A DNA stretch of 56,306 bases, from positions 1 through 56,306 of the IMG/VR virus record IMGVR_UViG_3300025888_000014; one strand, 5' to 3'. Positions 1 to 29,511 of this stretch are shown here, one piece after another (position 1 is the stretch's first letter; every line of letters begins with the position of its first letter). A program made the translations under genes and the position numbers. The notes beneath the pieces are model-generated. The model saw only the letters and a list, made by a program, of their open reading frames with translations. It did no database searches and was not told where the DNA came from. This DNA is from a virus (taxonomy: Duplodnaviria; Caudoviricetes).

Positions 1-127
1 GTCGAGGGCCAGCAACGACTTTCAACTTGCGGGATCATACCAGCCCACCGGGAACTACCAGACGGGCAGCCAGCCGCTGAGCAACCTGACGGCTAATCCT
101 TCTTTGTACCAGGCCACGAACACCACG
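1..127 (+). repeat. Exact copy of 55973..56099 (part of the 351-bp fibre repeat; contig break)
   Basis: Base-by-base identity for 127 nt, then divergence (TTGACC vs CTTACC). Confidence 0.95.
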
Positions 128-3100
128 TTGACCCAGTGGTCGACTATCCCGACGAACTACGTGCCGCCGCAATCGGGCCATGCAACCAACTCGGACCTAG
201 CAACCTTGGCGACTACGGCGATCACCAGCACCAACGCACAAACTTCGATGGTATCCAGTAACACCATCGGGCTGACGAACTTGACTGCGGGTTACCTCGT
301 GAAGTCTCTGGGTGGGAGTGTCGTAACTAATTCGCCCATTTATATTAATGGCAGTAGTCTTTTAGTGGGTACAACCAATAGTGATGTCGGCGGGACTTCA
401 GCGGGGTCGATTATTAAACCAGCAGGCCAAATGTATTTAGCAACCTCTAATTCTTCCGCCTGGAATAATTATCAGTTGAGTTTGGACAACCAGAACAACG
501 CTAGCAATTTACCAAATATTGTGTTCGGTAAAAAGGGAAACATTAAAGCGTATATCGGCTCCGAAGGGTTGTTGAATGGGTCTTTGAATGGCCAGTTGAC
601 ATTCGGTTTAATGACTTCCGCCGGGGCGACTGTGGAGAAAATGAGAATGGATAGCAACGGCAGTTGGGGAATGTCAAACACTCTAACCGTTGCTGGAAGC
701 GTTACTGCAAATTCATTGATACTGAATGGTGCTGCTAGTGGTAACGGAACTTTTGCAGTTCCGAATGCGGCGGGTGCTTTGAAATGGGTTTTCCCAAGCA
801 GCGCGGGTTCAAGTGGATACTTTCTGCAAGGAGACGGGGGGCCAGGTGGAGTTGTGACTTTTAGCATGGCTCCAAATATGATCACGACGAATGTGTTTGG
901 ACTTACTTCCATCAATGGTTCTACGAATCCTGCGCAAACATTGGCAGCTGATCCAGGTGTGTCAATTACTACGACCGGGGCAACAACCAGGATTGGCATG
1001 GCTGCATCCGCTTTGACAATGGGCGCTGGGCTTTCGGGCGGGACGTACAACGTGAGTTCAAATGTGACTGCTGCGGTGGTTTTTGGCGTCACGGCCGGCA
1101 CTTCCATCCAGGGCGACGATATTTCTAGGACAAATAACAGGTATCCGACAGACCATTCTGGTAATACAGTCACCAGTGCGGTGGCCCTGGCCACCTTGGC
1201 GACTACAGCGATCACCAGCACCAATGCTTACAACGTCGTTGGTTTGACGAACCTAACGGCGGGTTACCTAGTGAAATCGTTAGGCGGCAGCGTGGTGACT
1301 AACTCACCAGTGTTCACCGATGGAACGAATACCGGCTTTGGGACAATCACACCAGGGTATATTTTAGATGTCAATGGACCAGCAAGAATAGGGTATCCCG
1401 ACTATACATACACTCCACAACCCCTTTCTCTTTTTGGATCTGATGCCGGTATAAGTATTTTTTCAACTAATACTGATGTCGGTGCAGAGTCCTATGTTGC
1501 AGCGTTCATGAAAGATGGGGCTGGTACATACAGGAAAGTAGGAGCGGACGCTTTTCAATGGACGGACCCTAACGTAACCAATGGTTACGCTTCGTGGAAT
1601 GTTCATACAACATCCTTTACAAATGGTGTTACTTCGGATAATTTTGGATTAACAGTCTGGGCAAAACATGGTGCGGCCTTTTTCCCTTCTAGTTTAAGCG
1701 GTTCACTAGCACCCGGATTAAACACACTCAGAATTTATGGTAATAATGCGTGGATGGGTAATGGTAACGAGGGTCAACTCCAGATTTACAGTACTAACAG
1801 TTATGGAAGGCTTTTAATCGGTTACGATACGACAAGTGATTTTGGATTTATTCAACCAGTAAAGATCGGTTCTGGATGGACGAACTTGGTTCTTAATCCA
1901 TCGGGTGGTTATGTTGGCGTCCACAACACGAATCCCGTTGCAAATCTTGATGTTAACGGCACTATGCGTGTCGGTACTGGAGCTGGTTGGGGTTCAATGT
2001 ACCCTTTAGAACTCGTTGGCGATAATGCTGGACTTGCTATAACATCCACAAACACAGCATTGGGCACTGAATCGTACGTAGCATCTTTCATCAAAGACTC
2101 AGCGGGAGCATACAGAAAGCTGGGGGCAATTTCATTTAACTGGGCGGATAATGATGCAGTCGATGGTTATGCTGCATGGAATGTTCACACAACCGTGTTG
2201 AATGCCGGTGTACCAACAGATTTGTACGGTTTGACAGTGTGGGCAAACCACGGGGCGGCCTTTTTTCCAGCCAATCCAACCAGCGCCAGTGCTCCTGGGA
2301 AAGGTGTAGTTAGGTTCAACGGAGATAATAACAACAATGATCTTGGACAAATATTTATTGTGGGTACGACAGATGTAAACCAAAGGTTAACCTTAGGATA
2401 TAATACTACAAGTGATTATGGATTTTTAGCGGCATACAAGACTGGATCTGGCTATAAACCTCTAGTGCTGAGTCCGGATGGTGGTGGTGTAGGGATTGGC
2501 ACGACGCCGACGGCTGTGTTTCACACAAAACCTGCAACTGGAACGATTACTGGATTATCAAATGCAGTTTCAAATGCGTCGGCCTTTTTTGAATCTGGAT
2601 CATCAACATGGGGGTTAGCAGTTGGTTATCTTCCAACCGTAGTAATGGGTTTGCAAGTAGTGGATAAAGCACAGACTGGAAGTTCCACACTTGCCCTTAA
2701 TCCATACGGTGGGAATGTGATTGTCTCGAATAATCTAGCCGTGGCTGGAACGATCACTGGTTCGATAGCTGGGAGTAACATTACCAGCGCGGTATCAAAT
2801 GCGACTACGGCGACCAGTTCAACCTACGCCGGGATTGCGACGAACTTGTTGGGTGGCGAGCTTGATCCGGGATTCACGGCAGTCAGCAATCTATTTGCAC
2901 CCAAAGCAGCCCCTAAATTCACGGGACTAATTACCATTGGCGGAAACAGGTTTGGTTCTATGTATGCGGGAGATAATTATTATTATGCCGGTTCGAACTC
3001 GTTTGTAGTCGAGAACTGGTTGGGGACTCATGATATTTTTACCGTACTCAGCAACGGTAATGCTACGTTTACGGGAACCATAACTGCGCCCACGGTGGTA

Positions 3101-5209
3101 TCTACCAACCTGGTTGGCAATGCTACCATGGCTACCAACGCGAACCTGGCCACGCTGGCGACGACGGCCATAACCTCGACCAACTCTTACAACGTCGTTG
3201 GTTTGACGAACCTAACGGCGGGTTACCTAGTGAAATCGTTAGGCGGCAGCGTGGTGACTAACTCACCAGTGTTCACCGATGGAACGAATACAGGATTCGG
3301 GACTGTCACGCCGGGGGCGATGATACAAGTCAATGGTACGAGTGCTTTGTATGGCGATATTAATGCCGGATCGTCCGCATTGTTAAACACGTCCACTGCG
3401 GTGAACGGCACGGGTGGAGGCAGTCGGCAGTTTGACGCTTCATTTACAGGAGCAAGTGCAACCGGGTTCACCGGAACGGATTCATCGGATTCCGCACGCG
3501 GTTATTTTCCTGTGACCATCGTGGCCGGAAGGTGGTATAGAATATCGGCGACAACAGTCACGACTAATAGTAATCTCACAACTCTGTTCACAGCTACCGG
3601 ACTTAATTATGTGTTGAACACGGTTGAATCAATTGCAATTCCCGCAGTGTCCGGCACGGTTTATGATTTCCACGCGACCGGAAACGCATCTTACATTGGA
3701 TTCGCCATGACATATACGAGCGGAACAATGTCATTGGTTGTTTCCAACTTCTCGATTGTGGAACTTGGAACTACACTGGTAACCAGTCTCGGAAACGTGG
3801 GAATGTCAAATAACCTCACCGTGGCGAGCAACATCTACGCTGCGAACCTCGGCACCATCGCGAGCCGTGGCAGCAATGAGTACGCTCTGGTGAGTCATAG
3901 CAATGCATGGAGTACAATCACCGGCATTCCGATCTTCACGGATGGAATGGCTATCGGAATCGGCACGACGAACCTATGGAACACGCTAGTAGTCAGTGAT
4001 GGTACTGAAAAGAACATTGAGTTTGTTACTGGAAGTTCGCCGGGCATATTGAGTTATGATAGAATAGCGGACACGTATCTTCCATTAGACTTTTACGCTT
4101 CTGGCGCAACTCCAACACTTCACCTAAACACCAATGGCAACGCGACATTTGCGGGTGTAGTGACTGCTCCATCTCTGACTTTAACTGGCTTGAGTTCAGG
4201 CACGGACACGAACTTTCTGACGATTGACGGCTCTGGCGTGGTGCATTATCGAGTCGGCGGCGTGAATGGAACCAACGGTTTACCGGGAGCCAAGGGTGAT
4301 AAAGGGGATACCGGGAATACGGGAGCGGCAGGAACCAACGGTGTGGGAATTGCTGGAACCAACGGTTTGAACGGGACCAACGGATTAGCAGGAGTCAAGG
4401 GCGACAAGGGGGATACGGGAAACACAGGACTGTCCGGGACCAATGGACTTTCGGGAACCAATGGGCTGGCTGGATCGCCAGGATTGAATGGCACGAACGG
4501 AATTAACGGGACCAATGGTTTAACCGGTTCTCAAGGCGTTTCCGGCACGAATGGACTTGCTGGTTTGAATGGTACGAACGGCATGGCGGGTTCTCCGGGT
4601 GCGGCGGGAACTAATGGATTGGCGGGCTTGAATGGGACCAATGGCCTGCCTGGCGCTACGGGCGCGGCTGGCACCAACGGCCTGAACGGGGTCGGCATGA
4701 CCAACATCATAAACAAGGGGAATACCAACTATTCGCTCGTGTCTGGAAGTAATGGGGTTTTGAGCCTCAGCGCAGAGGACAGCAGTATTACCCTGACCAG
4801 CCAGGGGACAAACATCGCAATTCGAGCAAACTCGACGGGAACGGGCGTTAGCGGATACGCTATTAAATGGACAGGTTCCACGACTTATAATTATTACACT
4901 GCGGCACTTGATGTATCTGGGGTTACAGTTCTAATAATAACAAACCAATCATCATATTTCACTGTCAGCGGCATAGCCGGTGGGTTTGCTGGACGAATGG
5001 TAAAAATTATGAACATGTCTAACGGGGATGTTACCTTTAACCATTTGGGTCATAGTAACACAGGTGATGGATTCAGTCCCGAACCTTCAACAGTAAATTC
5101 AATTGTTCAGTGGGGGTCGGTGCTTGAATATGATGTCTTAGGAAACGGATATTCCAGAGAACTAATCCATAATGGTACTAACTGGGTGGAATTTGTCGGA
5201 ACATATTAA
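2..5209 (+). CDS. Giant tail fibre/adhesin-like protein, C-terminal part (5' end lies at 55437..56306)
   Basis: Frame is open from position 2 (TCG AGG GCC...), upstream of the track's TTG at 104. It is T/N/G/S-rich with fibre-type VGIGTT-like motifs, a duplicated ~190-aa domain and a collagen G-X-Y tract. Its first residues continue the repeat unit of the ORF at the window end. Confidence 0.8.
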   Translation, partial: SRASNDFQLAGSYQPTGNYQTGSQPLSNLTANPSLYQATNTTLTQWSTIPTNYVPPQSGHATNSDLATLATTAITSTNAQTSMVSSNTIGLTNLTAGYLVKSLGGSVVTNSPIYINGSSLLVGTTNSDVGGTSAGSIIKPAGQMYLATSNSSAWNNYQLSLDNQNNASNLPNIVFGKKGNIKAYIGSEGLLNGSLNGQLTFGLMTSAGATVEKMRMDSNGSWGMSNTLTVAGSVTANSLILNGAASGNGTFAVPNAAGALKWVFPSSAGSSGYFLQGDGGPGGVVTFSMAPNMITTNVFGLTSINGSTNPAQTLAADPGVSITTTGATTRIGMAASALTMGAGLSGGTYNVSSNVTAAVVFGVTAGTSIQGDDISRTNNRYPTDHSGNTVTSAVALATLATTAITSTNAYNVVGLTNLTAGYLVKSLGGSVVTNSPVFTDGTNTGFGTITPGYILDVNGPARIGYPDYTYTPQPLSLFGSDAGISIFSTNTDVGAESYVAAFMKDGAGTYRKVGADAFQWTDPNVTNGYASWNVHTTSFTNGVTSDNFGLTVWAKHGAAFFPSSLSGSLAPGLNTLRIYGNNAWMGNGNEGQLQIYSTNSYGRLLIGYDTTSDFGFIQPVKIGSGWTNLVLNPSGGYVGVHNTNPVANLDVNGTMRVGTGAGWGSMYPLELVGDNAGLAITSTNTALGTESYVASFIKDSAGAYRKLGAISFNWADNDAVDGYAAWNVHTTVLNAGVPTDLYGLTVWANHGAAFFPANPTSASAPGKGVVRFNGDNNNNDLGQIFIVGTTDVNQRLTLGYNTTSDYGFLAAYKTGSGYKPLVLSPDGGGVGIGTTPTAVFHTKPATGTITGLSNAVSNASAFFESGSSTWGLAVGYLPTVVMGLQVVDKAQTGSSTLALNPYGGNVIVSNNLAVAGTITGSIAGSNITSAVSNATTATSSTYAGIATNLLGGELDPGFTAVSNLFAPKAAPKFTGLITIGGNRFGSMYAGDNYYYAGSNSFVVENWLGTHDIFTVLSNGNATFTGTITAPTVVSTNLVGNATMATNANLATLATTAITSTNSYNVVGLTNLTAGYLVKSLGGSVVTNSPVFTDGTNTGFGTVTPGAMIQVNGTSALYGDINAGSSALLNTSTAVNGTGGGSRQFDASFTGASATGFTGTDSSDSARGYFPVTIVAGRWYRISATTVTTNSNLTTLFTATGLNYVLNTVESIAIPAVSGTVYDFHATGNASYIGFAMTYTSGTMSLVVSNFSIVELGTTLVTSLGNVGMSNNLTVASNIYAANLGTIASRGSNEYALVSHSNAWSTITGIPIFTDGMAIGIGTTNLWNTLVVSDGTEKNIEFVTGSSPGILSYDRIADTYLPLDFYASGATPTLHLNTNGNATFAGVVTAPSLTLTGLSSGTDTNFLTIDGSGVVHYRVGGVNGTNGLPGAKGDKGDTGNTGAAGTNGVGIAGTNGLNGTNGLAGVKGDKGDTGNTGLSGTNGLSGTNGLAGSPGLNGTNGINGTNGLTGSQGVSGTNGLAGLNGTNGMAGSPGAAGTNGLAGLNGTNGLPGATGAAGTNGLNGVGMTNIINKGNTNYSLVSGSNGVLSLSAEDSSITLTSQGTNIAIRANSTGTGVSGYAIKWTGSTTYNYYTAALDVSGVTVLIITNQSSYFTVSGIAGGFAGRMVKIMNMSNGDVTFNHLGHSNTGDGFSPEPSTVNSIVQWGSVLEYDVLGNGYSRELIHNGTNWVEFVGTY
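1227..1332 (+). repeat. 106-bp exact direct repeat within the fibre gene (second copy 3186..3291; diverged third copy ~270..340)
   Basis: Identical DNA encoding YNVVGLTNLTAGYLVKSLGGSVVTNSPVFTDGTN; preceded in all three copies by LATLATTAITSTN. Confidence 0.9.
4259..4696 (+). repeat. Collagen-like (G-X-Y)n tract dominated by GTN triplets
   Basis: GVNGTNGLPGAKGDKGDTG...GAAGTNGLNGVG in the translation. Confidence 0.9.
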
Positions 5210-5236: not shown

Positions 5237-5686
5237 ATGGGACGCACGTTTATAAAAGCCTACGGGCAAGTGATTTATAGGGGACTGTCAATAGCACTGT
5301 CGCTATTGATAGCGGGAATAATACTTTACCTTAACAGCAACTATGTAAACATAAAAGAGTATAAGGCCGAACAGGCCATAATCCGAACTGATTTAGTCGA
5401 GCAACAGAAAGAAGTTAGGGCGAGTTTAACTGCACAACAAACAACTATTAAATCGGATTTACAGAGCCAACAAGTATCAATTAAATCCGATTTACAATCT
5501 CAGCAAGTGCTGCTTGGTGCCAATTTGATTGAATTCCAGAATAAAAACACCGGAGAGCACCTTGAATTTTACAAAATTCTCGCGGGAATAAATCAGACAT
5601 TGGCGGTGATAAACGAACAGAATAAGCGGCTTGCCGACCATGAAGACAGACTGCGCATCTTAGAAAAAGGCAAACCGCAACCTTGA
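5237..5686 (+). CDS. Membrane-anchored coiled-coil protein (holin/i-spanin-like)
   Basis: One N-terminal TM helix (LSIALSLLIAGIILYL), 11-aa repeats (IKSDLQSQQVS/L) and C-terminal LADHEDRLRILEK; lies directly after the fibre gene. Confidence 0.55.
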   Translation: MGRTFIKAYGQVIYRGLSIALSLLIAGIILYLNSNYVNIKEYKAEQAIIRTDLVEQQKEVRASLTAQQTTIKSDLQSQQVSIKSDLQSQQVLLGANLIEFQNKNTGEHLEFYKILAGINQTLAVINEQNKRLADHEDRLRILEKGKPQP

Positions 5687-5710
5687 CAACTTCTTTCGAA
5701 GAACGATATT
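5683..5710 (+). promoter_or_regulatory. Putative sigma70 promoter, leaderless geometry
   Basis: TTGACA(5683)-N16-GATATT-N6-ATG(5717); the -10 box is weak. Confidence 0.4.
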
Positions 5711-5716
5711 CAAAAT

Positions 5717-6118
5717 ATGACGCCAGAACTTAGGAACGGAATCATCGCTGGTCTTTGCCGAACGCTGGTCGTTTATATCGCTGCCCGGTTATCCATCGGC
5801 GCGCTGGACCAGGGACACCTTGACCAGGTGGTTGCCGCTATGACAGTCGTGGTGTTCGCCGGTTATTCAGCATTCGCCAAATGGCGGGCGAGTAAGAAAG
5901 CGGCCGTAAAGGTTGAGAATCTGCAAACCGTCGTGGACACCAAGGTCGCCGAAACCCAGGTGCTCCGGGCCGCGGTCGCCGATAGCCAGGCGGAAACCGT
6001 CGTCATGATTGACGCCCTGGTCCAAGCCAAGGCGCCCATCCCCGAACTCCTGCCGACCCAAAAACTGGCCAGCATCGTGGATCCCGCGGCTGTCCTCCCC
6101 AATCTCGGTAAACCGTAA
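5717..6118 (+). CDS. Putative holin-like membrane protein
   Basis: Two hydrophobic segments, then basic KWRASKK and a helical tail; within the membrane/lipoprotein cluster. Confidence 0.5.
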   Translation: MTPELRNGIIAGLCRTLVVYIAARLSIGALDQGHLDQVVAAMTVVVFAGYSAFAKWRASKKAAVKVENLQTVVDTKVAETQVLRAAVADSQAETVVMIDALVQAKAPIPELLPTQKLASIVDPAAVLPNLGKP

Positions 6119-6131
6119 ACCAAAAACCAAA

Positions 6132-6446
6132 ATGTACACACCCCCCGCAAAACCAGTAATCGCACCTAAACAAGACCTGCCATGCGCCACCGGTCCATTA
6201 GGGTCGCAACCAGCGCCCATCTACCAGCCAGGTCCTAAACCTGCGCCTCCCGTTGCATCCCCCGTGGCCAACGCGCCCTACAACCCCGCGCCCACCGTCG
6301 CCTCGTTGACCAGCGATCTGTCGAAAGCGACGTTGACCATTTCCCAGGCATCTCTAGCGCTGGGATTCACCGGCCCGGCTCGCGACTTTCTCGCGTTCGC
6401 CCAGGCTCTAGCGGTCGAACTCAAAACGCTCCGTGCGAAAAAGTAA
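6132..6446 (+). CDS. Pro-rich hypothetical protein
   Basis: ATG at 6132 after an A/C-rich leader; MYTPPAKPVIAPK...; in frame with track ORF 6009..6446. Confidence 0.6.
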   Translation: MYTPPAKPVIAPKQDLPCATGPLGSQPAPIYQPGPKPAPPVASPVANAPYNPAPTVASLTSDLSKATLTISQASLALGFTGPARDFLAFAQALAVELKTLRAKK

Positions 6447-6464
6447 CCCTAAACCCCAAACAGT

Positions 6465-6602
6465 ATGACGAAAATCAAATTGATAATCGGAATCGTCCTT
6501 TGTGGCGCATTCCTTGCCGCCTGTTCCTCAACCCCTCAACCCACGCCGCCCATCGTCTGGCCGCCCATCGCGGATGCCCCGTGCGCCGTACCGGCCAAAT
6601 AA
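6465..6602 (+). CDS. 45-aa Pro-rich lipoprotein, o-spanin (Rz1)-like; absent from the ORF track
   Basis: MTKIKLIIGIVLCGAFLAA-CSSTPQPTPPIVWPPIADAPCAVPAK; LAAC lipobox. Confidence 0.7.
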   Translation: MTKIKLIIGIVLCGAFLAACSSTPQPTPPIVWPPIADAPCAVPAK

Positions 6603-6615
6603 ACGAACCAAATCT

Positions 6616-7020
6616 ATGAACAAAAAAATCCTAACTCCATTCGCCGCGGCCATTGCGATCGCGGCGTGCCTGTTCCTCATATCCACCACGCCGGGCTGTA
6701 ACACGCCCCAGCGGACGGCCTACGTCGCCGTAGGTGTAACTCAATCCCTGGCCGTCGGCGCCATGAACGGTTGGGGCGACTGGGTACGGGCCGGTCGCGC
6801 CACGGATGCTGACCAAGTTGCCGTGCGCCAAGCGTGGGAACGCTACCAGGGTGCCGTGCGCGTCGCCCATTCGGTGGAACTCAGCTTGCAGACTTCGATA
6901 GCGACCACTGATCCGGTCTGGCTTCAAGTCACGGCCGCTGTCGGTGCATCGTCCGACGAGTTGATCGCTCTGATTAAATCCCTAACCTCCACTCCAAAAC
7001 CAATAACCCCAGGAACCTAA
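6616..7020 (+). CDS. Lipoprotein, helical (possible spanin component)
   Basis: MNKK + hydrophobic core + TPG-C putative lipobox; ATG 6616 in frame with track ORF 6502. Confidence 0.65.
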   Translation: MNKKILTPFAAAIAIAACLFLISTTPGCNTPQRTAYVAVGVTQSLAVGAMNGWGDWVRAGRATDADQVAVRQAWERYQGAVRVAHSVELSLQTSIATTDPVWLQVTAAVGASSDELIALIKSLTSTPKPITPGT

Positions 7021-7211
7021 TGCCTCCCGGAACTCTAGAAATAGCCCTACTAATCGGTCAAGCTCTTATGAAATACGGGCCTGACGTAGCTCGTCAGATT
7101 CAGTTGCTTTTCACCAAAACCAACCCGACGGCCGCAGATTGGGAAGTGGTTTTTGCGCTGTCCGAGAAAACCTACGATCAGTTTGTCGCGCCGCTGTCCA
7201 AGCTGCCGTGA
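7020..7211 (+). CDS. Small amphipathic hypothetical protein
   Basis: TAATG overlap with the upstream gene. Confidence 0.65.
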   Translation: MPPGTLEIALLIGQALMKYGPDVARQIQLLFTKTNPTAADWEVVFALSEKTYDQFVAPLSKLP

Positions 7212-7786
7212 AATCTTTAAAACCCAAAACTCCAATCAAGCGCGGGTCGCGCCCGCGTCATTCGTTTGAGGTCCGCCGGTGGGCAGAGAATTCCCCTCCG
7301 GCGGACGTGTCGTGCAAACCAATGAAACGCATAAATCTCAGCGGTGGCAATAATGCAGCGCCAACCAGTAAGTCCAACGCCGCAATCGGCATTCTAAAGG
7401 CAAGGGGTTGGACGGTTGCGGTATCGAAATCAAGGAAACGTTACGGCTTTGGGAAATGCCCCGCTTGCCACAAATCACTGACCAAAACCTATGCCCGCAG
7501 TCTCTCGCCGTTGCAATGGTCAAACCTACAAACTGCATATTGGAGGGACGCTTGGCACTGTGAATGGGCCGCGCACCGAGAGCTTCTTAGGAAGATAAAT
7601 GCCCCAAAAAACGGTATCGCCACACACCAGGAATCCATCGCCGCGCTCCGCAGAGGGGCTAAAGCGTTCGGGCGAAAGGTGGGCATTTCATTGTTCAAGA
7701 AACACGATCCGCTGGAGCGAATTTACTGGCAGAAATGGTGCGCTTTGGATGAAGCAGCAGATTATCTCGCCTGCCTGAAGAAATGA
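7208..7786 (+). CDS. Basic hypothetical protein with CxxC
   Basis: GTGA overlap with the upstream stop; CPACH motif; start uncertain. Confidence 0.45.
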   Translation: MKSLKPKTPIKRGSRPRHSFEVRRWAENSPPADVSCKPMKRINLSGGNNAAPTSKSNAAIGILKARGWTVAVSKSRKRYGFGKCPACHKSLTKTYARSLSPLQWSNLQTAYWRDAWHCEWAAHRELLRKINAPKNGIATHQESIAALRRGAKAFGRKVGISLFKKHDPLERIYWQKWCALDEAADYLACLKK

Positions 7787-7896
7787 TTCCGCTCCCCAAA
7801 AAGCCATTCCCCAAGATCGTTGACTTCGCCGTCGTCCTGGCTGCTATGATGGCCCTCGTCTATTTCCTCATGTACCTTGCCGGCGTCAACCCGTAG
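7783..7896 (+). CDS. 37-aa single-TM peptide
   Basis: ATGA overlap; MIPLPKKPFPKIVDFAVVLAAMMALVYFLMYLAGVNP. Confidence 0.5.
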   Translation: MIPLPKKPFPKIVDFAVVLAAMMALVYFLMYLAGVNP

Positions 7897-7981
7897 CCTA
7901 GTTTTCTTCAACGCCCGACTTCATTTTATGACCAATTGCAAATCGTTTGCAGTTGTGGTTGAAAATAACTTAAATTATTGT

Positions 7982-8010
7982 TTGACACGGGATGCTTAAT
8001 AATTTACTTT
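7982..8010 (+). promoter_or_regulatory. sigma70 promoter of the early/replication operon, leaderless
   Basis: TTGACA(7982)-N17-TACTTT(8005)-N6-ATG(8017), with AT-rich upstream sequence. Confidence 0.7.
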
Positions 8011-8016
8011 CGCGTC

Positions 8017-8175
8017 ATGGCAAATATTCCAGTTTCGCAGAACGAACCAAAACAGTGGACGTTTGAACCCAACATTACCGTGCGGGAAAAGGTCAAGGAG
8101 ATCATGGTAAAAACAAAACTCAAGCGAACACCCATTCTCAACCGCCTCTGCGAAACTGGACGATTGAAAGGCTGA
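8017..8175 (+). CDS. Small ribbon-helix-helix (Arc/CopG-like) DNA-binding protein
   Basis: 52 aa; strand-helix-helix pattern QWTFEP...VREKVKEIMVKTKLKRTPILNRLC; first gene after the promoter. Confidence 0.5.
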   Translation: MANIPVSQNEPKQWTFEPNITVREKVKEIMVKTKLKRTPILNRLCETGRLKG

Positions 8176-8177
8176 CC

Positions 8178-8417
8178 ATGTTTACCCTATACCTCAGCGC
8201 ATTGATTTGTGCGATCGCCATAATAATCTGGCTCGTCCTATGGACCTGCATCAAACAGAAAGCGATCTGGTGGAAATGCTCATGGTGCCATTGGTACTTT
8301 TCAAGCGATGGCGCTTTGGTACCATACCGGCATTTATCCGATGCGTCAGACCCAGTGAGCCACGGAATCTGCCCGGCGTGCGCCCGAAAGATCGAAGAAA
8401 GCGAAAAGCTAAAATAA
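8178..8417 (+). CDS. TM-anchored zinc-ribbon protein
   Basis: N-terminal TM, CSWC...SHGICPAC. Confidence 0.65.
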   Translation: MFTLYLSALICAIAIIIWLVLWTCIKQKAIWWKCSWCHWYFSSDGALVPYRHLSDASDPVSHGICPACARKIEESEKLK

Positions 8418-8640
8418 TTTCCTGGCAGCCAGAGTGTGTCGTCAGAACGCTCAAGCTAAAAACACTCAACCGGGCTTGCAAAGACGGGGCTGCCGGGGAT
8501 TCAATTTCTGATCGAAACCAAAGCAATTAGTGACACCCATTTAACAAAATGCGTTTCTATCTTTCTAATCGCGGAGGTTTTCGCTTCCGCTGATTGGCGG
8601 GGCCGATCAGATCAATCACAGTAAAACAAAACCAAAACCT

Positions 8641-20632: not shown

Positions 20633-20970
20633 GAATCGGCTATGGTCGTTTCACGTGGATAAATGTTCGCACCATGCCTAAGCATTATGTCTATCGCCAT
20701 AACCGCACCCCTAATGTCCAACGGCTGAGAACCGTCCAAGCATTTGCGGATGTTCAGCAACCCGGCCCACATAGATTCACAATCCCCGCATAACGGATTG
20801 CCGTGGCTGGTTCGATGCACCAAGCCTAAAATCGGTTTCCCACATTTCAAACAGCAAATTGCTGCCGATTCGTTTTTCCCGGCTCCGTAAAAACATTCTG
20901 AGAGATGTTCGCGCCCTTGCGATTGTCGGCATTCACTGCAAATTATATCCTTAACTGTGTTTGTTTTCAT
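20629..20970 (-). CDS. Zinc-finger protein
   Basis: CSEC, CLKC, CGDC. Confidence 0.65.
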   Translation of the reverse strand: MKTNTVKDIICSECRQSQGREHLSECFYGAGKNESAAICCLKCGKPILGLVHRTSHGNPLCGDCESMWAGLLNIRKCLDGSQPLDIRGAVMAIDIMLRHGANIYPRETTIADS

Positions 20971-21010
20971 TGTGTCTTTTGATTCGTTGTTTTACCGTTC
21001 TACTATCGCT

Positions 21011-21039
21011 ACAATCTATCAATGCCCTTTGGTTGTCAA
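21011..21039 (-). promoter_or_regulatory. Possible leftward sigma70 promoter
   Basis: TTGACA on the minus strand with TAGATT (N15) or GATTGT (N17). Confidence 0.4.
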
Positions 21040-21331
21040 ATGAATTCGTGAGAAATCTTTCAGCCACCGCCGCCGCACCGCCGACAACGTTGCCCATTTG
21101 CCCAAGGACAGCCGCGAAACCCTCAGACGTACAAAGTGACACCCCATGCCCAAAGGGAAGCCAATCGGTAGTTAGGAGGAAGTTGACCGGAAGCTGGGGG
21201 GAAGTTAGAGAGAATCACGACTCGCCTTGTCGTCATTCAATTGTTCCTCAAATGCCCTACAACGTGCGCGTACCCTTAAACCGTACATTGTGACACCCTT
21301 TCAATCAAAACGCGCCCAGCAAGCCGTACAG

Positions 21332-21360
21332 TTGACAGAATCGGCATCCTCATGCATACT
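21332..21360 (+). promoter_or_regulatory. sigma70 promoter, leaderless
   Basis: TTGACA-N17-CATACT-N6-ATG(21367). Confidence 0.7.
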
Positions 21361-21366
21361 GCCATC

Positions 21367-21750
21367 ATGCTGTTTACACCCGAAACCGCCCGATCAGCCT
21401 CCCAAAAGGGTTTGATCGTTCGGATGTCTCATTCAAAAGCTCGCCAAGATCGTGAAGCTCTACTCACCAGGCTGATCGAACAAGCGTCGTTTCAACCCCC
21501 GATCAAACGGCCCGACGACCAAGATTCATATGCGACTGAACAGGTCGTCATTGTCCGTGAACAGTTAGCTCGCCTTCACGACCAGCTACGCAAAGCCGAT
21601 GACACCCGCGATACATTTCGCATTGCCACGGCTATCTGCAAGCTCGGGGATTATGAAGCGGACCTTGCTGGAAGGCCAAGACCAGGCAACCTTCGCCCAG
21701 TAGCCCCTCGTCGCGCTGTTGCAGCGTTCACGCCGCCGGCTGATAGCTGA
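21367..21750 (+). CDS. Helical protein, candidate terminase small subunit
   Basis: FTPETARSASQKG N-terminus and helical core; followed by a long non-coding region. Function is inferred. Confidence 0.4.
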   Translation: MLFTPETARSASQKGLIVRMSHSKARQDREALLTRLIEQASFQPPIKRPDDQDSYATEQVVIVREQLARLHDQLRKADDTRDTFRIATAICKLGDYEADLAGRPRPGNLRPVAPRRAVAAFTPPADS

Positions 21751-22294
21751 TAGATCATGGTAGATGCTGCCCGCTTGACTGTTTCACTCGATTGCCAGCA
21801 TCGATGCAAGTTGGAACCTGTTGTCATTCAACACACAACGCAAATCTTTCGCACAACATCACTTATGCTTAGTGCGTTAACGTTAGCATTCAACCCATTG
21901 ACTGCGTGTATGTTAGTCCTGTTACGCACCCTGTAACATGCGTTACACATAGCGTAACCATGGCCATGCCTGCCATGCTGTGCCTTGTCCTGTGCTCTGC
22001 CTGCCATCGATCAAAGGAATCTATTGTTTTCGTGGGGGAGGGAGGGCCGGGGGGCGGGTACGGCGCCGGGGGGCGCGGATGGATGGGGACGGTTATACGA
22101 CATATGCACTTTTGTGCGAACCCAACTTTGGAACTTTTCTGGCAGGCGATTGGGATTGTCGCAGAAAGGCGGTATTGCCCGCGGGTGGGATGGATGGGCG
22201 AGGACGTGCGATAAGATTGATCTTGAGCTTGAGGTGCTAGCCCACGTCCTCATTATGCTACGGAAAACTATTTTGTCCACATAGACGATTTTAT

Positions 22295-22323
22295 TTGACA
22301 GGGTAGTGGGGGTGTGGGATGAT
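22295..22323 (+). promoter_or_regulatory. Putative sigma70 promoter, leaderless
   Basis: TTGACA-N17-GATGAT-N7-ATG(22331), extended TG. Confidence 0.5.
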
Positions 22324-22330
22324 GGTAAGA

Positions 22331-23335
22331 ATGAAATTAAAAACGCATCCTGTGGCCGAGATATTTCCGATGATGGGCAAGAGTGAATTGAAGGAATTGG
22401 CGGATGATATTAGGGCGAATGGATTGGAACAAGCGGTCGTGATTCAGGGGGACGTATTGCTCGATGGCAGGAACCGGTTGGCGGCTTGTGAGATGGCGGG
22501 GGTGAAGGTGGATTATCGAGAATACGAGGGGGATAATCCGGTGGCCTTCATCATAAGTTCAAATATTCACCGGCGGCATTTGACGGAATCACAACGCGCC
22601 ATGGTGGCGGTGAAACTGGCGAATATGCGGCAGGGCGAGAGAACCGATAAAGAACCTTCGCCGAATTCGGCTAAGGTGTCCCAGAAGCAAGCCGCCACGC
22701 TTCTCAACGTGGGGGTGTCCTCTGTGAAGGATGCAAAGGTGGTGGCGGACGCCTCGCCCGAACTTATGGCACAAGTCCTATCTGGGGATATAACCGTGAA
22801 TGCCGCCAAGCAACAGGTGAGGCCGCATGTGGCCAACAACTCCGGGAATAACGAATGGTATACGCCGAAGGAATATATTGAGGCGGCTCGGCGCGTAATG
22901 GGAGTTATTGATTTAGATCCGGCGAGCAGCAAGGAAGCAAATGGGGTGGTGAAGGCATCCAAGTTTTACACGGAAAAGGATAATGGTTTGAAGGCGGATT
23001 GGAAGGGAAGGGTTTGGATGAACCCGCCGTATGCTTCGGATTTGGTTGGGAAGTTCATCGAAAAGTTGGCGGTATCAATGGAATCAGGAGAAGTAACCGA
23101 GGCCTTGGTTTTGGTAAATAATGCTACCGATACAAAGTGGTTTGCCCGGCTGGCCAGCATAAGCAAGTTTTTATGTTTTCCAACGGGCCGGGTCCGGTTC
23201 TGGAAGACTGGGAAGAAATCGGCGGCACCCTTGCAGGGGCAATGCGTGGCTTACATCGGGAAGCATTACCAAAAGTTCGTTGATGACTTCTGCCAGTTTG
23301 GAATGATGGTCGAAATAATCCATGAACGACGCTGA
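22331..23335 (+). CDS. ParB-like domain fused to phage Dam-family N6-adenine methyltransferase
   Basis: HPVAEIFP..LDGRNRL..SNIHRRHL; WYTP, DLDPAS, WMNPPY. Confidence 0.9.
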   Translation: MKLKTHPVAEIFPMMGKSELKELADDIRANGLEQAVVIQGDVLLDGRNRLAACEMAGVKVDYREYEGDNPVAFIISSNIHRRHLTESQRAMVAVKLANMRQGERTDKEPSPNSAKVSQKQAATLLNVGVSSVKDAKVVADASPELMAQVLSGDITVNAAKQQVRPHVANNSGNNEWYTPKEYIEAARRVMGVIDLDPASSKEANGVVKASKFYTEKDNGLKADWKGRVWMNPPYASDLVGKFIEKLAVSMESGEVTEALVLVNNATDTKWFARLASISKFLCFPTGRVRFWKTGKKSAAPLQGQCVAYIGKHYQKFVDDFCQFGMMVEIIHERR

Positions 23336-25763: not shown

Positions 25764-26228
25764 ATGGATTTTATGAAGCACAGAATAATATTGATCGGAT
25801 TGATGGGGTTTCTATTTGTTTGGGCGGTATTCCGCATTGGGACTGTTTTGCTGACCGGTGTAATTGAGTACCAGAATCAAAAACTGTTGGAAAAAGTCAA
25901 AAGCAAGAATTTGGACATGGAGTTCGAACGGCTCAACAATTCAATTGACCAGGCTATAACCGATGCGGGTACAAACTTTCTATTTCTACCGATACCCAAA
26001 GTCGAGTGGATGAACGATGCCATTTATTATACCACGAACCAGGTGTTTGATGAGGAACGAACTTTGGAGGCACGCAATCCTAGATCAGTGACGCTCGAAT
26101 ATGTCGCCTACTCAAAAGATGTCATCACCACGAACAATGTCTGGCCGTCTGTTTTCCCCAAGGGAAATGATCGCATCGAACTGGGTTTTAGGTCTGACGG
26201 CGTTATCGTCTGGAGGAACAGGAAATGA
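25764..26228 (+). CDS. Membrane-anchored exported protein
   Basis: N-terminal TM segment; three TN dipeptides. Confidence 0.65.
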   Translation: MDFMKHRIILIGLMGFLFVWAVFRIGTVLLTGVIEYQNQKLLEKVKSKNLDMEFERLNNSIDQAITDAGTNFLFLPIPKVEWMNDAIYYTTNQVFDEERTLEARNPRSVTLEYVAYSKDVITTNNVWPSVFPKGNDRIELGFRSDGVIVWRNRK

Positions 26229-26250: not shown

Positions 26251-26997
26251 ATGAACAAAAAAACAGCAGTAATAATCCTCGCCATGGCAATCAGTCTGGT
26301 TGCCTGCAAATCGGGAGAGGTTACCAATGAAGTCAAAACCGTCGTCGTGAGAATGATGTGCGACACGCTGGGATGCAAAGGCGAGATGAAGCCGACAGGA
26401 GTATGCCTCACCACTTATCCCGCGCAATGGCCGCACGCCTGCACGGTCTGTAAGGTAGGCAGGACGTACAGAATCGTCTATCCTGATAAACGGTTTGAAA
26501 CGGTCGCAGACAAAAACAAATTGACTGAAGGTTTCATCCCGTATTTTACGATTGAAACGAACATAATGTCGAAAGATGTGCTTCTAATTCAGCCCAGCAT
26601 CGCCACAAACTGGCAATCCATCGGCACCTACACGCCGAAAACTGGCGCTAGCGAAGATGTCCAGCGCGGGAACATCGTCACCAACACAACGGCTATCCTC
26701 GAATGGAAAGGAAAGCGGCATGAACTTCTGCTTGAAAGCGTCAACGGGCCGGAGTGCGGCGAGAGAAGGGTGCCAATGCAAAATCAGTGGCCCCAACAGT
26801 GGTATGGACTTGGATGGATGGGCACGAATATCACGATTACGAATATTCTGCTTAACGACCTTATACCCCACGAACAACAGGGGTTCACCATCACGAATTC
26901 GGTTTGGATTGACCACATCGAAGGCACGAATATCGGGCCGTGGATTCAAGTCATGACCAACTCCAATCATAATTATAATCTGGAAACGAAATGGTGA
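26251..26997 (+). CDS. Lipoprotein with Cys-rich domain and TN-rich tail
   Basis: MNKK + hydrophobic core + LVA-C lipobox; AAGGAG RBS. Confidence 0.75.
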   Translation: MNKKTAVIILAMAISLVACKSGEVTNEVKTVVVRMMCDTLGCKGEMKPTGVCLTTYPAQWPHACTVCKVGRTYRIVYPDKRFETVADKNKLTEGFIPYFTIETNIMSKDVLLIQPSIATNWQSIGTYTPKTGASEDVQRGNIVTNTTAILEWKGKRHELLLESVNGPECGERRVPMQNQWPQQWYGLGWMGTNITITNILLNDLIPHEQQGFTITNSVWIDHIEGTNIGPWIQVMTNSNHNYNLETKW

Positions 26998-27228: not shown

Positions 27229-29511
27229 TTATTCTGACTTCGGAGTCGCCTCCGCCATCATTTTCGTTCGAGAAATCTGGGCATCGTTCATCATGGTTTT
27301 TCGGTTTTCCTCGGCCATCATGCTTTGGTCGGCGCGGTTCTGGTCTTGCTGGTGGGCATCCGCTTTGATCTGGTTCTTCAATCCGGCCTGTTCGGCCTGC
27401 AACTTCATCTTGGATGCAGCGGCTTCCTCGTGCATCTGGACTGCGGCCGTGGCCTTACCCACGATCGAGGCTGTAGCGGCGTCGGATTCCTGCTTGGCAC
27501 CGACCTGGGTGGCGTCTTGTTGCGCCTTGGCCTGGTCCTGGGCCTTCTTCGTCACCGCCTGTTCGATGGTTCGGATGTCGTTTGAGATTTTACCCAGCGC
27601 GTCCGCGGCCGCCTTGGCCATTTCCTGCCGGGCCGGGTCGGCCTGCATCTGTTGAAGCAGCGCGCCGATGTGTTGCTCGACCTGGTGCATCCCCCACACG
27701 TCCCGGGCGGTGGCCAAGCCGTCTTGCATCCCCATCTGAACCTCCTCGCCAAGCAGTTTGATCAGGACCGTGACCTGATCGATGACGTTGGCGTTGTCCA
27801 TAACAGCCGGCTGGTGACCGCGCATGAGCATGGTGAAGTCGGATTCAGCCGATTTCTGGGACGGCGTGGTTTCTGCCTTGTTATCCATAGGGGCGAACTG
27901 GGCGCCCTTGCGCGAGTCGTCCGTCATGACGCTGGTGGCGAAATTGAGGATTTCCTGCTGGGACTGAGGACTGAACGCCATTCGATTTTGCATGAGCCAG
28001 TTGGCCTGGGCGGTCGCCATGGTGGGATTACCGGCGCCAGCGGGAACCTCGATCTCGACCTTCCATTTCTTGATGTCGATCCATTCGTCCGGGATACCGC
28101 GCGCCTTGACCTTTTCGCGGAATAATTTCACAAGTTTATCATTGGACTTGTCGATGCAGAAACGTCGGGCGATCTCCTGGTATTGAAACTTCTTTCGACC
28201 GAAGGCCACGATCATAATGTTGGACATCATAGCGTTAACGAGGCTCAACATAGCGGCAACTTCGTAGGCGGTGCGTTCTTTCTGAGTGCCATTGTCTATG
28301 GACTGGTTGTACTGGGTGGCCGCTTCGTTCATGAGTTGCTTTAATTGGGCCTGAACGGATTCTACGAGAGGCAAGTTGACCTGGTGGCGTTCATTTGACG
28401 GAACAATTTGGGTGCCCTCTGGTAGAATGGAAGAATTGAACAGGTTGATTACCGATGGCCGGGCCTTTCCGGCGGGAGTGGTCTGCTTCAACAGGATGTT
28501 CATATTCTCGAAAGCGTGTTGAATCTTCCGGCAAAGCATCTGGTTTGACCAGAAACAAGGCTCAAAAAGCAGATAGCCAAGGGAACGGACAGCATGGTAT
28601 TTCCTTGGCGCATCAGCGGTAAGATCGCCATATTGAACGTGCAAAAGTTGACCGAGAGAATCAGCAACGCCATCCTTTTCGTAAAAGAATTTGTCGGGTT
28701 TTTCGCCTTTCACGCCTCCGACAGCCGCAAGCATTTTGTGATTCCATTTATCGGTATCGTCGTCTTTGTAATAAAAGCTCCAAAACTTGACCGTGGGAGC
28801 CTTATCAGAGGAAAGAAAACCTACCCCTTGGCGATAGGCTGAAAGAATCTTTTCCTCAGTCAGGTTCATGTCGTTGGTTTGGGTTTCAAATAGATCATCT
28901 TTGTAGAGTGCCATCGTTTTTGTAATGAGAGGCTTATTCCAATGCGTATCAGCATGTGTATCGAATGCCATTTTGATCAGTTCGCCGATGGTGAATTCTC
29001 GGAGCCAGGCAAACCACGGCATTCTGGTCATGGAAGTTTTCGTATCAGTTGGGATACGAAGATCATCAATGGCGATGAATTCAGGGATCGGCTCTTCGTC
29101 GTCTTTCCACATGACCGGAGCGATTCCGTGGGCAATCACGGCGTTATTTTCGTCACCTATGCACTCCATCATTTCAGCGGAGTCCTTCAGCACCTCATTG
29201 ACATCCTCGGTGATTCCGGTTTCATACCCGGTTTTAACTTCCTTCGGGGCCTTGGGCAAAAGAACGCGAAAGAAATACTTCGCCTTTAAAAACGCGCCAT
29301 CCATTTGACGAATGGCGTGGGCGAATAAAACGCACGCTTCCTTGAAGTTGGATTTGATCTCCTGGTGAAGTTTGGCCGCTTCTTCATTGGTGATGAGTTG
29401 CCCGCCATTAAGCATGTTTGTGACCTTGGCGCGGTTGGCTGAACGATCGCGGTTAATGTCGTCACCCTGGGCAATTGTCGTGAGTATGCGTTCTACAGAA
29501 CCGAATTTCAT
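27229..29511 (-). CDS. Portal protein (podovirus-like)
   Basis: 760 aa downstream of the terminase; RTAYEV motif; Q/A-rich helical C-terminal barrel. Confidence 0.8.
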   Translation of the reverse strand: MKFGSVERILTTIAQGDDINRDRSANRAKVTNMLNGGQLITNEEAAKLHQEIKSNFKEACVLFAHAIRQMDGAFLKAKYFFRVLLPKAPKEVKTGYETGITEDVNEVLKDSAEMMECIGDENNAVIAHGIAPVMWKDDEEPIPEFIAIDDLRIPTDTKTSMTRMPWFAWLREFTIGELIKMAFDTHADTHWNKPLITKTMALYKDDLFETQTNDMNLTEEKILSAYRQGVGFLSSDKAPTVKFWSFYYKDDDTDKWNHKMLAAVGGVKGEKPDKFFYEKDGVADSLGQLLHVQYGDLTADAPRKYHAVRSLGYLLFEPCFWSNQMLCRKIQHAFENMNILLKQTTPAGKARPSVINLFNSSILPEGTQIVPSNERHQVNLPLVESVQAQLKQLMNEAATQYNQSIDNGTQKERTAYEVAAMLSLVNAMMSNIMIVAFGRKKFQYQEIARRFCIDKSNDKLVKLFREKVKARGIPDEWIDIKKWKVEIEVPAGAGNPTMATAQANWLMQNRMAFSPQSQQEILNFATSVMTDDSRKGAQFAPMDNKAETTPSQKSAESDFTMLMRGHQPAVMDNANVIDQVTVLIKLLGEEVQMGMQDGLATARDVWGMHQVEQHIGALLQQMQADPARQEMAKAAADALGKISNDIRTIEQAVTKKAQDQAKAQQDATQVGAKQESDAATASIVGKATAAVQMHEEAAASKMKLQAEQAGLKNQIKADAHQQDQNRADQSMMAEENRKTMMNDAQISRTKMMAEATPKSE

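Follow-up and report, generated by a model that had tools for sequence, protein, structure and literature searches.

The HMW1 adhesin is modified at N-X-S/T by a cytoplasmic enzyme (NGT/HMW1C), and the sequon of PglB is D/E-X-N-X-S/T. BclA of Bacillus has collagen-like G-P-T repeats with O-linked glycans on Thr, and the cytoplasmic, GT9-like enzymes Aah and TibC decorate many Ser/Thr residues of the repeat-rich adhesins AIDA-I, TibA and Ag43 before export. General O-glycosylation in Bacteroidota is described as acting at D-(S/T)-(A/I/L/V/M/T), a motif shared by numerous exported proteins within a single phylum (PMC8550257, PMC12871550). For mycobacteriophage virions, phage-encoded glycosyltransferases are described as being thought to decorate the phages' own structural proteins (PMC11256854).

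The DNA analyzed here, called the window, is the whole 56,306-nt IMG/VR record IMGVR_UViG_3300025888_000014, a virus contig from peat metagenomes. In the signal-bearing proteins of this peat-soil phage and of a few relatives, the dipeptide Thr-Asn (TN) occurs 2-6 fold above chance, and in the other proteins it does not. Triplets of counts are given throughout as TN / NT / expected from composition, with significance by shuffling (5000 shuffles), and signal peptides were predicted by a hydrophobicity heuristic together with inspection by eye. Features are listed in Table 1. Searches of IMG/VR and of the 50,697 phage genomes recorded in INPHARED gave no relatives of the terminase, and IMG/VR gave none of P0009; no tRNA genes were found in the window, ESM Atlas look-ups returned no host taxa, and the sole match in a methyltransferase scan of genome contigs was 28% identical and lay in a Saccharibacteria MAG.

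Table 1. Features of the window relevant to the Thr-Asn bias (count triplets are TN / NT / expected)
Feature	Position	Strand	Details
N-terminal part of giant fibre-like protein	55425..56306	+	294 aa, open at contig end
Remainder of giant fibre-like ORF	2..5209	+	1735 aa, open at 5' end
repA, copy 1	125..403	+	aa 42-134; 6 / 1 / 1.55
repA, second copy	1142..1390	+	aa 381-463; 4 TN
repB1 domain	1364..1966	+	aa 455-655; 6 TN
repB2, paralogue of repB1	1946..2515	+	aa 649-838; ~50% identical to repB1; 1 TN
repA, third copy	3077..3349	+	aa 1026-1116; 6 TN
Collagen-like region	4259..4696	+	aa 1420-1565; PF01391 E=1.4e-19
C-terminal domain of fibre	4700..5206	+	aa 1567-1735; 5 / 2 / 1.9
TM protein	25764..26228	+	154 aa, N-terminal TM segment, directly upstream of lipoprotein
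Lipoprotein	26251..26997	+	248 aa, lipobox LVAC
Large signal-less protein (internal negative control)	39328..44511	+	1727 aa; 0 / 2 / about 3.8-3.9
NDP-sugar 3-C-methyltransferase, TylC3/TcaB9-like, cytoplasmic	47210..48403	-	PF08421, PF13489, PF08484
DUF5672 protein	48384..49991	-	535 aa; PF18922 E=1.5e-10
Weak GT9-like protein	51417..52814	-	465 aa; PF01075 E=0.019

Thr-Asn bias in signal-bearing proteins

When the ORFs of the window, the related viral contigs G001 and G002 and the metagenome loci L005 and L006 were pooled, the 12 with a signal or an N-terminal TM segment (4,540 aa) gave 136 / 41 / 51.2, against 76 / 75 / 78.2 for the remaining 99 (28,945 aa). TN is the most over-represented dipeptide in five separate proteins, and the excess was replicated in proteins found only once the hypothesis was already fixed. 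The sequences that carry it have Sec or lipoprotein signals by heuristic and inspection (LLFAQA-P, AFVSNA-A, SSAFA-A and the lipobox LVAC). TN lay far above NT, rather than about equal to it as composition in Thr and Asn would give.

The main ORF of the giant fibre-like protein gave 50 / 19 / 21.9, a TN count reached in none of 5000 shuffles, with TN ranking first among all dipeptides (z=6.0). Its N-terminal part, at the other end of the contig, gave 10 / 2 / 4.1 (P=0.003, shuffles); it begins with a predicted Sec-type signal (MKRF..LLFAQA, about aa 1-24, by the same heuristic and inspection), followed by a Trp/Thr/Asn-rich region and then by copies of a ~117-aa tandem unit. Residues 1-71 of the main product are 93% identical to residues 184-254 of the N-terminal product. 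The contig is broken inside a tandem repeat of the fibre gene, so that the protein has at least 2029 aa. Read depth in run X1 was 109 at window positions 1-177 vs ~19 elsewhere, and one contig of run X2 extends back 205 bases, with 146 between. Variants in the four read runs were too few for a microdiversity test of selection on TN codons.

About half of the fibre TN come from repeats, namely 13 collagen G-T-N and 16 in repA, a ~90-aa module found by blastp of the window against itself in three copies (6+4+6); this multiplication is an observation that speaks against a modification. With one copy kept per repeat and the collagen removed, the fibre (1364 aa) still gave 32 / 12 / 15.5 (0 of 5000 shuffles), and stripped of all repeats (999 aa) it gave 18 / 8 / 10.9 (P=0.017). 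Some 920 aa (C135-380, C649-1025 and C1117-1417) show no excess, with 9 TN vs 9.7 expected, and these stretches also speak against a modification, as a general sequon shield might cover them too. Four of the six repB1 TN are missing from repB2 and from most of 41 outgroup homologues, and comparison of these sequences suggests that repB1 gained TN relative to both.

The collagen-like region scores 70 bits against a PF01391 cut-off of 27.2 and also matches PDB collagen chains; of its 48 G-X-Y triplets, with one interruption, 13 are G-T-N, the triplet on which the original prediction saw the collagen built, and 20 have Asn at Y. Outside that region the fibre has no PHROG, Pfam family or PDB sequence match, and the collagen and C-terminal part has no relatives in INPHARED. 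The collagen-bearing tail fibres of PHROGs 6320, 5073, 26246, 366 and 1806 match aa 1377-1680 via the collagen part only, and Foldseek gave weak matches to fibres, E=0.01 at best, with TM 0.24-0.29. The gene stands apart from the structural block at 32773..44511, upstream of a presumed lysis cassette.

The lipoprotein gave 9 / 1 / 2.0 (0 of 5000 shuffles), again with TN as the top dipeptide (z=4.9), and the adjoining TM protein gave a marginal 3 / 0 / 0.78 (P=0.03). All of these TN counts agree exactly with the hand counts first reported (about 50 for the main fibre ORF, 10, 9 and 3). No relatives of the lipoprotein were found in IMG/VR. In an alignment of five sequences, the TN at aa 119, 144 and 226 are invariant in all five with varying flanks, and the C-terminal part, where conservation is low, holds more TN; the AlphaFold model (pLDDT 32) is too low in confidence to place the TN positions.

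The excess was present in all homologues found (four for the lipoprotein, six for the fibre N-terminus), all of them with predicted signal peptides. Counting the window proteins, each lipoprotein family member reached P<=0.002 and each fibre-N member P<=0.005; the seven fibre-N members are mutually homologous and therefore not seven independent observations. The fibre-N homologues P0159-P0161 and ORFs in L003, L005, L006 and G2 all have A-x-A signals, and in P0159, P0160 and P0161 Thr precedes 47-54% of all Asn (TN z=5.6-9.3). The excess also extends to other families: two ORFs of G2, at 20772..21485 (8 / 2 / 2.0) and 21485..21898 (5 / 3 / 1.8), have no BLAST similarity to the fibre-N or lipoprotein families.

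Proteins without a signal behave differently. The large signal-less protein, which has no PHROG or Pfam family, contains no TN at all, as the original prediction had noted, and all other window ORFs pooled (n=45, 13,246 aa) gave 31 / 33 / 36.5. Thr/Asn-rich proteins without a signal gave 1 / 6 / 3.9 for the product of window 37377..38468, 1 / 4 / 2.9 for a 776-aa ORF of L005 with an N-terminus that is tail-spike-like by eye, and 1 / 3 / 1.8 for the major head protein of G2; an exception is the signal-less G1 ORF 6819..8495, with 9 / 3 / 4.7. The lysis-cluster lipoproteins do lack TN, as had been claimed, with at most 0.5 expected in each, so that their lack of TN says nothing. The excess is restricted to this lineage: among 150 fibre-domain homologues of other lineages pooled, TN/expected was 1.18 and NT 0.91, with TN/expected 1.15 in the 33 with signal-like N-termini and 1.19 in the other 117. 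The exported Thr/Asn-rich beta-helix adhesin Ag43 of E. coli gave 4 / 8 / 8.3, and lambda Stf orf401 gave 5 / 1 / 1.3.

Character of the motif

The bias acts on protein and not on DNA, because TN is encoded by eight codon pairs and in frame only (ACNAAY occurs 50 times in frame vs 7 out of frame); a DNA-level motif was rejected on the same grounds (50 of 57 in frame). Local Thr/Asn-rich composition was likewise rejected, since NT, NN and TT stand at or below expectation and such patches are thus not the cause. The bias has a direction (TN, not NT) and very little context: across 134 distinct TN-centred 15-mers each flanking position carries only 0.14-0.34 bits, and TN recurs at no regular interval. 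Among the flanking residues Trp is over-represented, by 3.7-fold at +1 and by 4.1-fold at -6. In the window fibre SN is raised as well (31 vs 17), and in most homologues it is not, so that the motif is not sharply defined; VN and IN stand at 0.51 and 0.59 of expectation, and Asn before L, I, W or Y lies above it. The bias is independent of fold, as TN is found at collagen X-Y positions, in loops and at strand edges of a beta domain, and in regions without an assigned fold.

A diversity-generating retroelement with an AAY-rich variable region was set aside, given that the bias extends over more than 2000 aa and that no reverse transcriptase occurs in the ORFs scanned, which included part of the small ORFs. 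Asn deamidation or extracellular stability was set aside as well: virion proteins also end outside the cell and lack the bias, so the difference would seem to lie in the route through the envelope rather than in extracellular life.

None of the known sequons is enriched. The fibre without its collagen has N-X(not P)-S/T 44 times vs 38.4 expected (P=0.17), [DE]-X-N-X-[ST] 3 vs 1.7 (P=0.24), and D[ST][AILVMT] 3 vs 6.5 in shuffles. Across the 12 members of the fibre-N and lipoprotein families, D-(S/T)-(A/I/L/V/M/T) occurs 0-5 times each, never significantly, and N-X-S/T is significant in P0161 only (15 vs 9.6, P=0.03). Sequons in glycoproteins are usually not strongly over-represented. Full-text literature searches found no report of a TN sequon.

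Candidate explanations

A bias that is linked to signals, restricted to a lineage and placed in varied structural settings is the pattern to be expected if a process peculiar to the host lineage acts on exported proteins. We favour, at a probability of about 0.4, the reading that TN is an acceptor or recognition site of a modification on exported proteins in the host lineage. TN would be selected at the protein level only in Sec-routed proteins of this phage lineage: the collagen-bearing fibre-like protein, the lipoprotein and, in related phages, proteins with signals that are unrelated to these two. Exported proteins would be modified at TN in a host lineage yet to be identified, most probably by glycosylation of Thr or Asn, which would leave both the exported fibre and the lipoprotein heavily decorated. 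We infer the existence of any modification, along with its residue, enzyme and place. The acceptor motif of the original prediction has gained from the tie to Sec and lipoprotein signals, which extends to related viral contigs, and from the absence of bias in virion and cytoplasmic proteins and in exported homologues of other lineages; what weighs on it is that known sequons are not enriched and that the literature searches found no TN sequon.

The window also holds sugar genes, which count among the points in favour of a modification. The 3-C-methyltransferase matches the D-mycarose 3-C-methyltransferase of PDB 4rv9 (E=4.7e-73, aa 3-396 of 397), in line with its TylC3/TcaB9 assignment, and represents a possible phage-borne capacity for glycan tailoring, as judged from its sequence. 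The DUF5672 protein is possibly glycosyltransferase-like, a lead only: GT9 or GT2 domains accompany DUF5672 in clusters of the ESM Atlas, and the C-terminal half of the window protein is similar to a cluster bearing the name GT2 (TM 0.81). The weak GT9-like protein scores 14.7 bits vs a PF01075 cut-off of 22, over 32 residues only, and no multi-TM, OTase-like ORF was found in the window. The methyltransferase and the putative glycosyltransferases could act in glycan tailoring, or in transfer before export. It speaks against a modification at TN that these phage enzymes are cytoplasmic, and their target may instead be DNA or the host surface. The DUF5672 protein was unmatched in G001 (62% complete) and G002 (52%), as was a control search, which makes that comparison uninformative.

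A more specific form of the acceptor-site reading, decidedly doubtful in our estimate, makes TN the sequon of a general modification system not yet described, in an uncultured peat-soil bacterial lineage, most plausibly Thr O-glycosylation. Phages of this lineage would fill fibre-like proteins and lipoproteins bound for export with TN, so densely that Thr precedes half of all Asn, and the phage sugar proteins would remodel or attach the glycan. In that case the fibre with its signal would be exported and glycosylated, unlike the usual tail fibre, whose assembly is cytoplasmic.

The main rival is structural and stands on the unlikely side: in beta-rich proteins of fibrous or adhesin-like kind, a hydroxyl residue would end a beta strand and Asn would come after it, either within the turn or where the following strand begins, and repeats together with collagen G-T-N would multiply the pair in an Asn-rich lineage, with no modification involved. 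The AlphaFold model of fibre aa 381-660 (pLDDT >90 at aa 481-580) fits this, as T160 (model numbering, here and below) is predicted to end a strand, N161-G162 to form a turn and the TN at 146-147 to lie in a hairpin loop preceding a strand; all six repB1 TN are in or adjoin modelled loops, and at two of these sites homologues keep T while the next residue varies among G, S, N and D. The raised SN and the favoured N-L, N-I, N-W and N-Y fit a strand-start pattern, yet the depletion of VN and IN argues against a plain rule by which any strand residue favours Asn after it. The mild preference for TN over NT in the fibre-domain class and the counts for lambda Stf orf401 also agree with structure, although the class-wide 1.18 is far below the 2-6 fold of this lineage. 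The excess is limited to particular modules of the fibre, as structure would have it, but the paralogue repB2 manages without five of the six repB1 TN. Collagen X-Y positions offer no beta turn, signal-less fibrous proteins of the same phages and the exported Ag43 lack the excess, and the near-informationless flanks and irregular spacing also count against structure.

An improbable account is that TN arrays form hydrogen-bonding patches for a host polysaccharide or envelope polymer, the fibre and the lipoprotein sharing a kind of ligand. Thr, Asn and Trp are residues that typically contact sugars, TN often adjoins Trp, and the proteins are fibre- or adhesin-like; Bdellovibrio fibre tips, among them a structure with bound GlcNAc, are weak fold matches (E>=0.01). 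However, a Pfam scan of the window fibre and the lipoprotein found no lectin or CBM family in these two proteins, TN runs along whole proteins, the collagen stalk included, instead of concentrating at a tip, and at least four unrelated families would have to bind through one dipeptide; the lipoprotein and the fibre N-terminus share no sequence similarity (E=2.6).

It is very improbable that an envelope chaperone, a folding pathway or Sec-coupled vectorial folding favours TN-rich chains: the restriction of the bias to exported proteins and to this lineage would suit such a signal, but downstream the lipoprotein and the fibre would go separate ways, the data give no hint of a chaperone, and we know of no TN-type chaperone or export-folding motif. 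An artefact of composition, repeats or chance, suggested by the share of fibre TN that repeats contribute and by the choice of TN only after the sequence had been viewed, is negligible in view of the excess that remains once repeats are collapsed, the first rank of TN in five proteins, the low NT, NN and TT and the replication in proteins found later.

If TN does mark a modification site, a plain sequence count would reveal a new bacterial protein-modification code; such a count would flag substrates in uncultured soil phages and their hosts, and TN would be a sequence signature linking phages to a host lineage. The phages would also route large fibre-like proteins via host secretion, unlike the accepted making of tail fibres. 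Even if the cause is structural, a bias that is strong, directional and export-specific is a useful marker for an unexplored phage group.

Comparison with known systems

As in Bacteroidota O-glycosylation, a short motif here marks exported proteins; unlike the Bacteroidota motif, TN has no preceding Asp, Thr is followed by Asn and not by an aliphatic residue, and the Bacteroidota motif itself is not enriched. A large exported protein of fibrous adhesin type with many candidate acceptor sites recalls HMW1 and HMW1C, while in contrast to N-glycosylation sequons the hydroxyl residue precedes Asn instead of standing at +2. Like BclA, the exported fibre has a collagen-like stalk that repeats a triplet with Thr, with the difference that the triplet here is G-T-N, with Thr at X and Asn at Y. 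The weak GT9-like ORF and the DUF5672 protein give the window a likeness to the Aah and TibC systems, from which it differs in the sub-threshold GT9 match and in that their substrate Ag43 has no TN excess. The mycobacteriophage targets, capsid and tail-tube proteins, are products of the cytoplasm, whereas here the bias lies in signal-bearing proteins and is absent from head proteins. Unlike collagen-bearing phage tail fibres, the fibre-like protein has a predicted signal peptide, which is conserved among its relatives.

Thr-Asn excess in the fibre and the lipoprotein

The original prediction held that the dipeptide Thr-Asn (TN) is in excess in exported proteins of this phage, and each of its hand counts was reproduced exactly. 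When TN was compared with Asn-Thr (NT) and with expectation protein by protein, the excess was not mirrored by NT; in the fibre without its collagen-like region, observed/expected was 2.03 for TN, 0.82 for NT, 0.58 for NN and 0.81 for TT, indicating a directional bias. TN was the top dipeptide by z-score in both the fibre (6.0) and the lipoprotein (4.9). The fibre count is inflated by repeats, with 13 TN in collagen G-T-N triplets and 16 within three copies of the repeat repA. With collagen removed and one copy kept per repeat (1364 aa), the fibre contained 32 TN and 12 NT for 15.5 expected, and 0 of 5000 shuffles reached 32; without any repeats (999 aa), it contained 18 TN and 8 NT for 10.9 expected (P = 0.017). 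The excess is uneven along the fibre, and residues 135-380, 649-1025 and 1117-1417 of the larger fibre ORF (~920 aa) hold 9 TN vs 9.7 expected. The rest of the window, 45 ORFs totalling 13,246 aa, holds 31 TN and 33 NT for 36.5 expected. A 760-aa protein without a signal had nine [ST]N vs one N[ST] for 4.0 expected (P = 0.02, a significance removed by multiple testing), mainly as SN (6/1/1.8).

The bias operates at the protein level, because TN is encoded by eight codon pairs and ACNAAY is in frame in 50 of 57 occurrences. VN (0.51) and IN (0.59) are depleted in the collagen-free fibre and SN is raised (31 vs 17 expected), and none of the known sequons N-X-S/T (44 vs 38.4), D[ST][AILVMT] (3 vs 6.5) and [DE]-X-N-X-[ST] (3 vs 1.7) is enriched there. 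The 134 distinct TN sites are irregularly spaced, and their flanking positions hold only 0.14-0.34 bits each; [A/I/L]-T-N-[A/G/W] is weakly preferred.

Features of the window
Feature	Position	Strand	Description
Fibre, N-terminal part	55425..56306		294 aa, 3' end open
Fibre signal	55425..55496		apparently cleavable Sec signal
Fibre, rest	2..5209		1735 aa, 5' end open; continues 55425..56306
repB1 and repB2	1364..2515		~190 aa each, ~50% identical
Collagen-like region	4259..4696		48 G-X-Y triplets
Lysis cassette (presumed)	5237..5686		small protein, N-terminal TM segment, coiled-coil-like repeat
Lysis cassette (presumed)	5717..6118		small protein, N-terminal TM segment
Lysis cassette (presumed)	6502..7020		ORF with internal start giving lipoprotein-like N-terminus
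Lipoprotein	26251..26997		248 aa
760-aa protein	27229..29511	-	no signal
NDP-sugar 3-C-methyltransferase	47210..48403	-	TylC3/TcaB9-like; clear (PDB 4rv9, E=4.7e-73)
DUF5672 protein	48384..49991	-	relatives found alongside GT9 and GT2 domains; C-terminal half GT2-like by Atlas structure
GT9-like ORF	51417..52814	-	weak, sub-threshold match
459-aa protein	53986..55365		upstream of fibre

Conservation, lineage restriction and signal peptides

Homologues of the lipoprotein number four among 5.8 billion proteins, with TN/NT/expected counts (the order used hereafter) of 9/1/1.5, 9/1/2.0, 6/1/1.6 and 6/1/1.7; three TN columns are invariant in their alignment amid variable flanks, and the divergent C-terminal part holds further TN. 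Three longer homologues of the fibre N-terminus, all with A-x-A signal peptides, gave 34/5/9.8, 39/3/9.8 and 18/3/5.2, and 47-54% of all their Asn are preceded by Thr. Signal-bearing relatives in metagenome loci gave 11/4/4.9, 11/0/2.6 and 12/6/4.1. All 12 members of the lipoprotein and fibre-N families were significant by shuffling (P ≤ 0.005), the fibre-N members being homologous to each other. The TN excess is a family trait that is more pronounced outside the window.

Beyond these families, 150 homologues of the repB region of the fibre had TN/expected of 1.18 and NT/expected of 0.91, and the 33 with signal-like N-termini (1.15) were similar to the other 117 (1.19). Among these, the lipoprotein homologues and the outgroup protein P0003, only 4 of 66 proteins with an expectation of at least 3 reached a TN ratio of at least 2. 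Comparison proteins gave 4/8/8.3 (E. coli Ag43), 1/3/4.7 (lambda J) and 5/1/1.3 (lambda orf401). The TN excess is specific to this phage lineage. Within the fibre, repB1 has six TN vs one in repB2, which is similar to outgroup homologues, P0003 among them; four of the six repB1 sites lack TN in repB2 and in most outgroups, as if TN had been gained after duplication.

A heuristic and visual inspection served to call signal peptides, and two related viral contigs, G001 and G002, were examined in full length. G002, which has terminase and major head protein genes, carries after its head genes three consecutive signal-bearing ORFs (20772..23177) with 8/2/2.0, 5/3/1.8 and 17/3/6.3. Neither of the leading two ORFs had BLAST similarity to the other families, and none of the remaining G002 ORFs showed TN excess. 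The trio adjoins the head genes 3', where tail genes would be expected. Across the window, both contigs and the metagenome loci L005 and L006, the 12 ORFs with a signal or N-terminal TM segment (4,540 residues) contained 136 TN and 41 NT for 51.2 expected (2.66 and 0.80 times expectation), vs 76 TN and 75 NT for 78.2 expected (0.97 and 0.96) in the 99 other ORFs (28,945 residues). Two ORFs of the exported set have zero TN, and the only non-signal ORF leaning toward TN, with no signal detected, was a 559-aa ORF of G001 (6819..8495; 9/3/4.7, P = 0.05). Apparently cleavable Sec signals are conserved in the fibre-like proteins, namely the window fibre, its three longer homologues (P0159-P0161), the metagenome loci L003 (272..1447), L005 (337..1170) and L006 (2090..3202), and the G002 trio.

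The fibre gene and its genome

The N-terminus of the fibre is a typical Sec signal, MKRFIFLAVFLFQTLLFAQA, as judged by heuristic and by eye, followed by modules comprising three repA (~90 aa), two repB domains, a collagen-like region and a C-terminal domain. Residues 1-71 of the larger ORF match residues 184-254 of the smaller at 93% identity. Read depth in metagenome run X1 is 109 over window 1-177 vs ~19 elsewhere, and the tandem unit is visible in one contig of run X2; therefore, the contig is broken within a tandem repeat of ~117 aa (~351 bp), and the fibre protein has at least 2029 residues. The contig ends (1..205 and 55974..56306) are out of frame by one base, so that sequence is missing between them. 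PHROG tail-fibre matches were restricted to the collagen part, in which Asn occupies Y in 20 of 48 triplets and X is Leu in 14 and Thr in 13, combinations that are poor triple-helix formers in host-guest data. Six N-G-T sequons arise there where an Asn-ending triplet precedes G-T-N. A structure model of residues 381-660 (pLDDT 70 overall, >90 for 481-580) weakly matched Bdellovibrio, T4 and T5 fibres. A presumed lysis cassette (5237..7020) lies just 3' of the fibre gene.

The window is a whole IMG/VR record, classed linear with 100% CheckV completeness, and encodes a primase-helicase, a Dam methylase, a PD-(D/E)XK exonuclease, an HNH endonuclease and a sigma-70 region-4 protein, with no tRNA genes found in its 56,306 bases. 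Most large ORFs matched no PHROG or Pfam family, and the terminase, itself a weak match, had no relative in IMG/VR or among 50,697 phage records. Near-identical DNA is present in peat metagenome runs; two of the ten listed contained at least half of the sampled words, and the source sample may be one of these two runs. Locus L006 shares synteny with the window, and a 459-aa protein encoded upstream of the fibre gene, which matched no Pfam, PHROG or NCBIfam family, has a distant homologue at the same position there (1..1320; tblastx, 27-33% identity).

Modification or structure as the possible cause

A structural origin of the TN excess, the main alternative, draws on the fibre model, which places TN at strand-loop boundaries, on homologue columns that retain T while the next residue varies (G, S, N or D), and on a mild TN-over-NT asymmetry across the whole class of fibre-domain homologues. 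However, structure accounts poorly for the collagen G-T-N triplets, for how strong the effect is and for its restriction to one lineage, and we regard this cause as somewhat less likely than modification.

A bias that is confined to signal-bearing proteins, independent of fold, nearly context-free, conserved and restricted to one lineage is the pattern expected if exported proteins meet a TN-recognising factor in the host. Virion proteins lack the bias though they also end outside the cell, and therefore the route through the envelope, rather than the extracellular milieu, seems to matter. Based on these sequence patterns, we tentatively propose as the best explanation, with a probability of about 0.4, that the bias is due to modification of exported proteins, glycosylation being the leading candidate.

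Three sugar-related genes form a module on the minus strand (47210..52814). Their proteins are cytoplasmic, and no multi-TM, transferase-like ORF was found in the window; the products may modify a glycan whose target could be protein, DNA or the host surface. No TN sequon turned up in the literature searches. Precedents for protein glycosylation include BclA, HMW1C, Aah/TibC and the glycosylation of mycobacteriophage virions.
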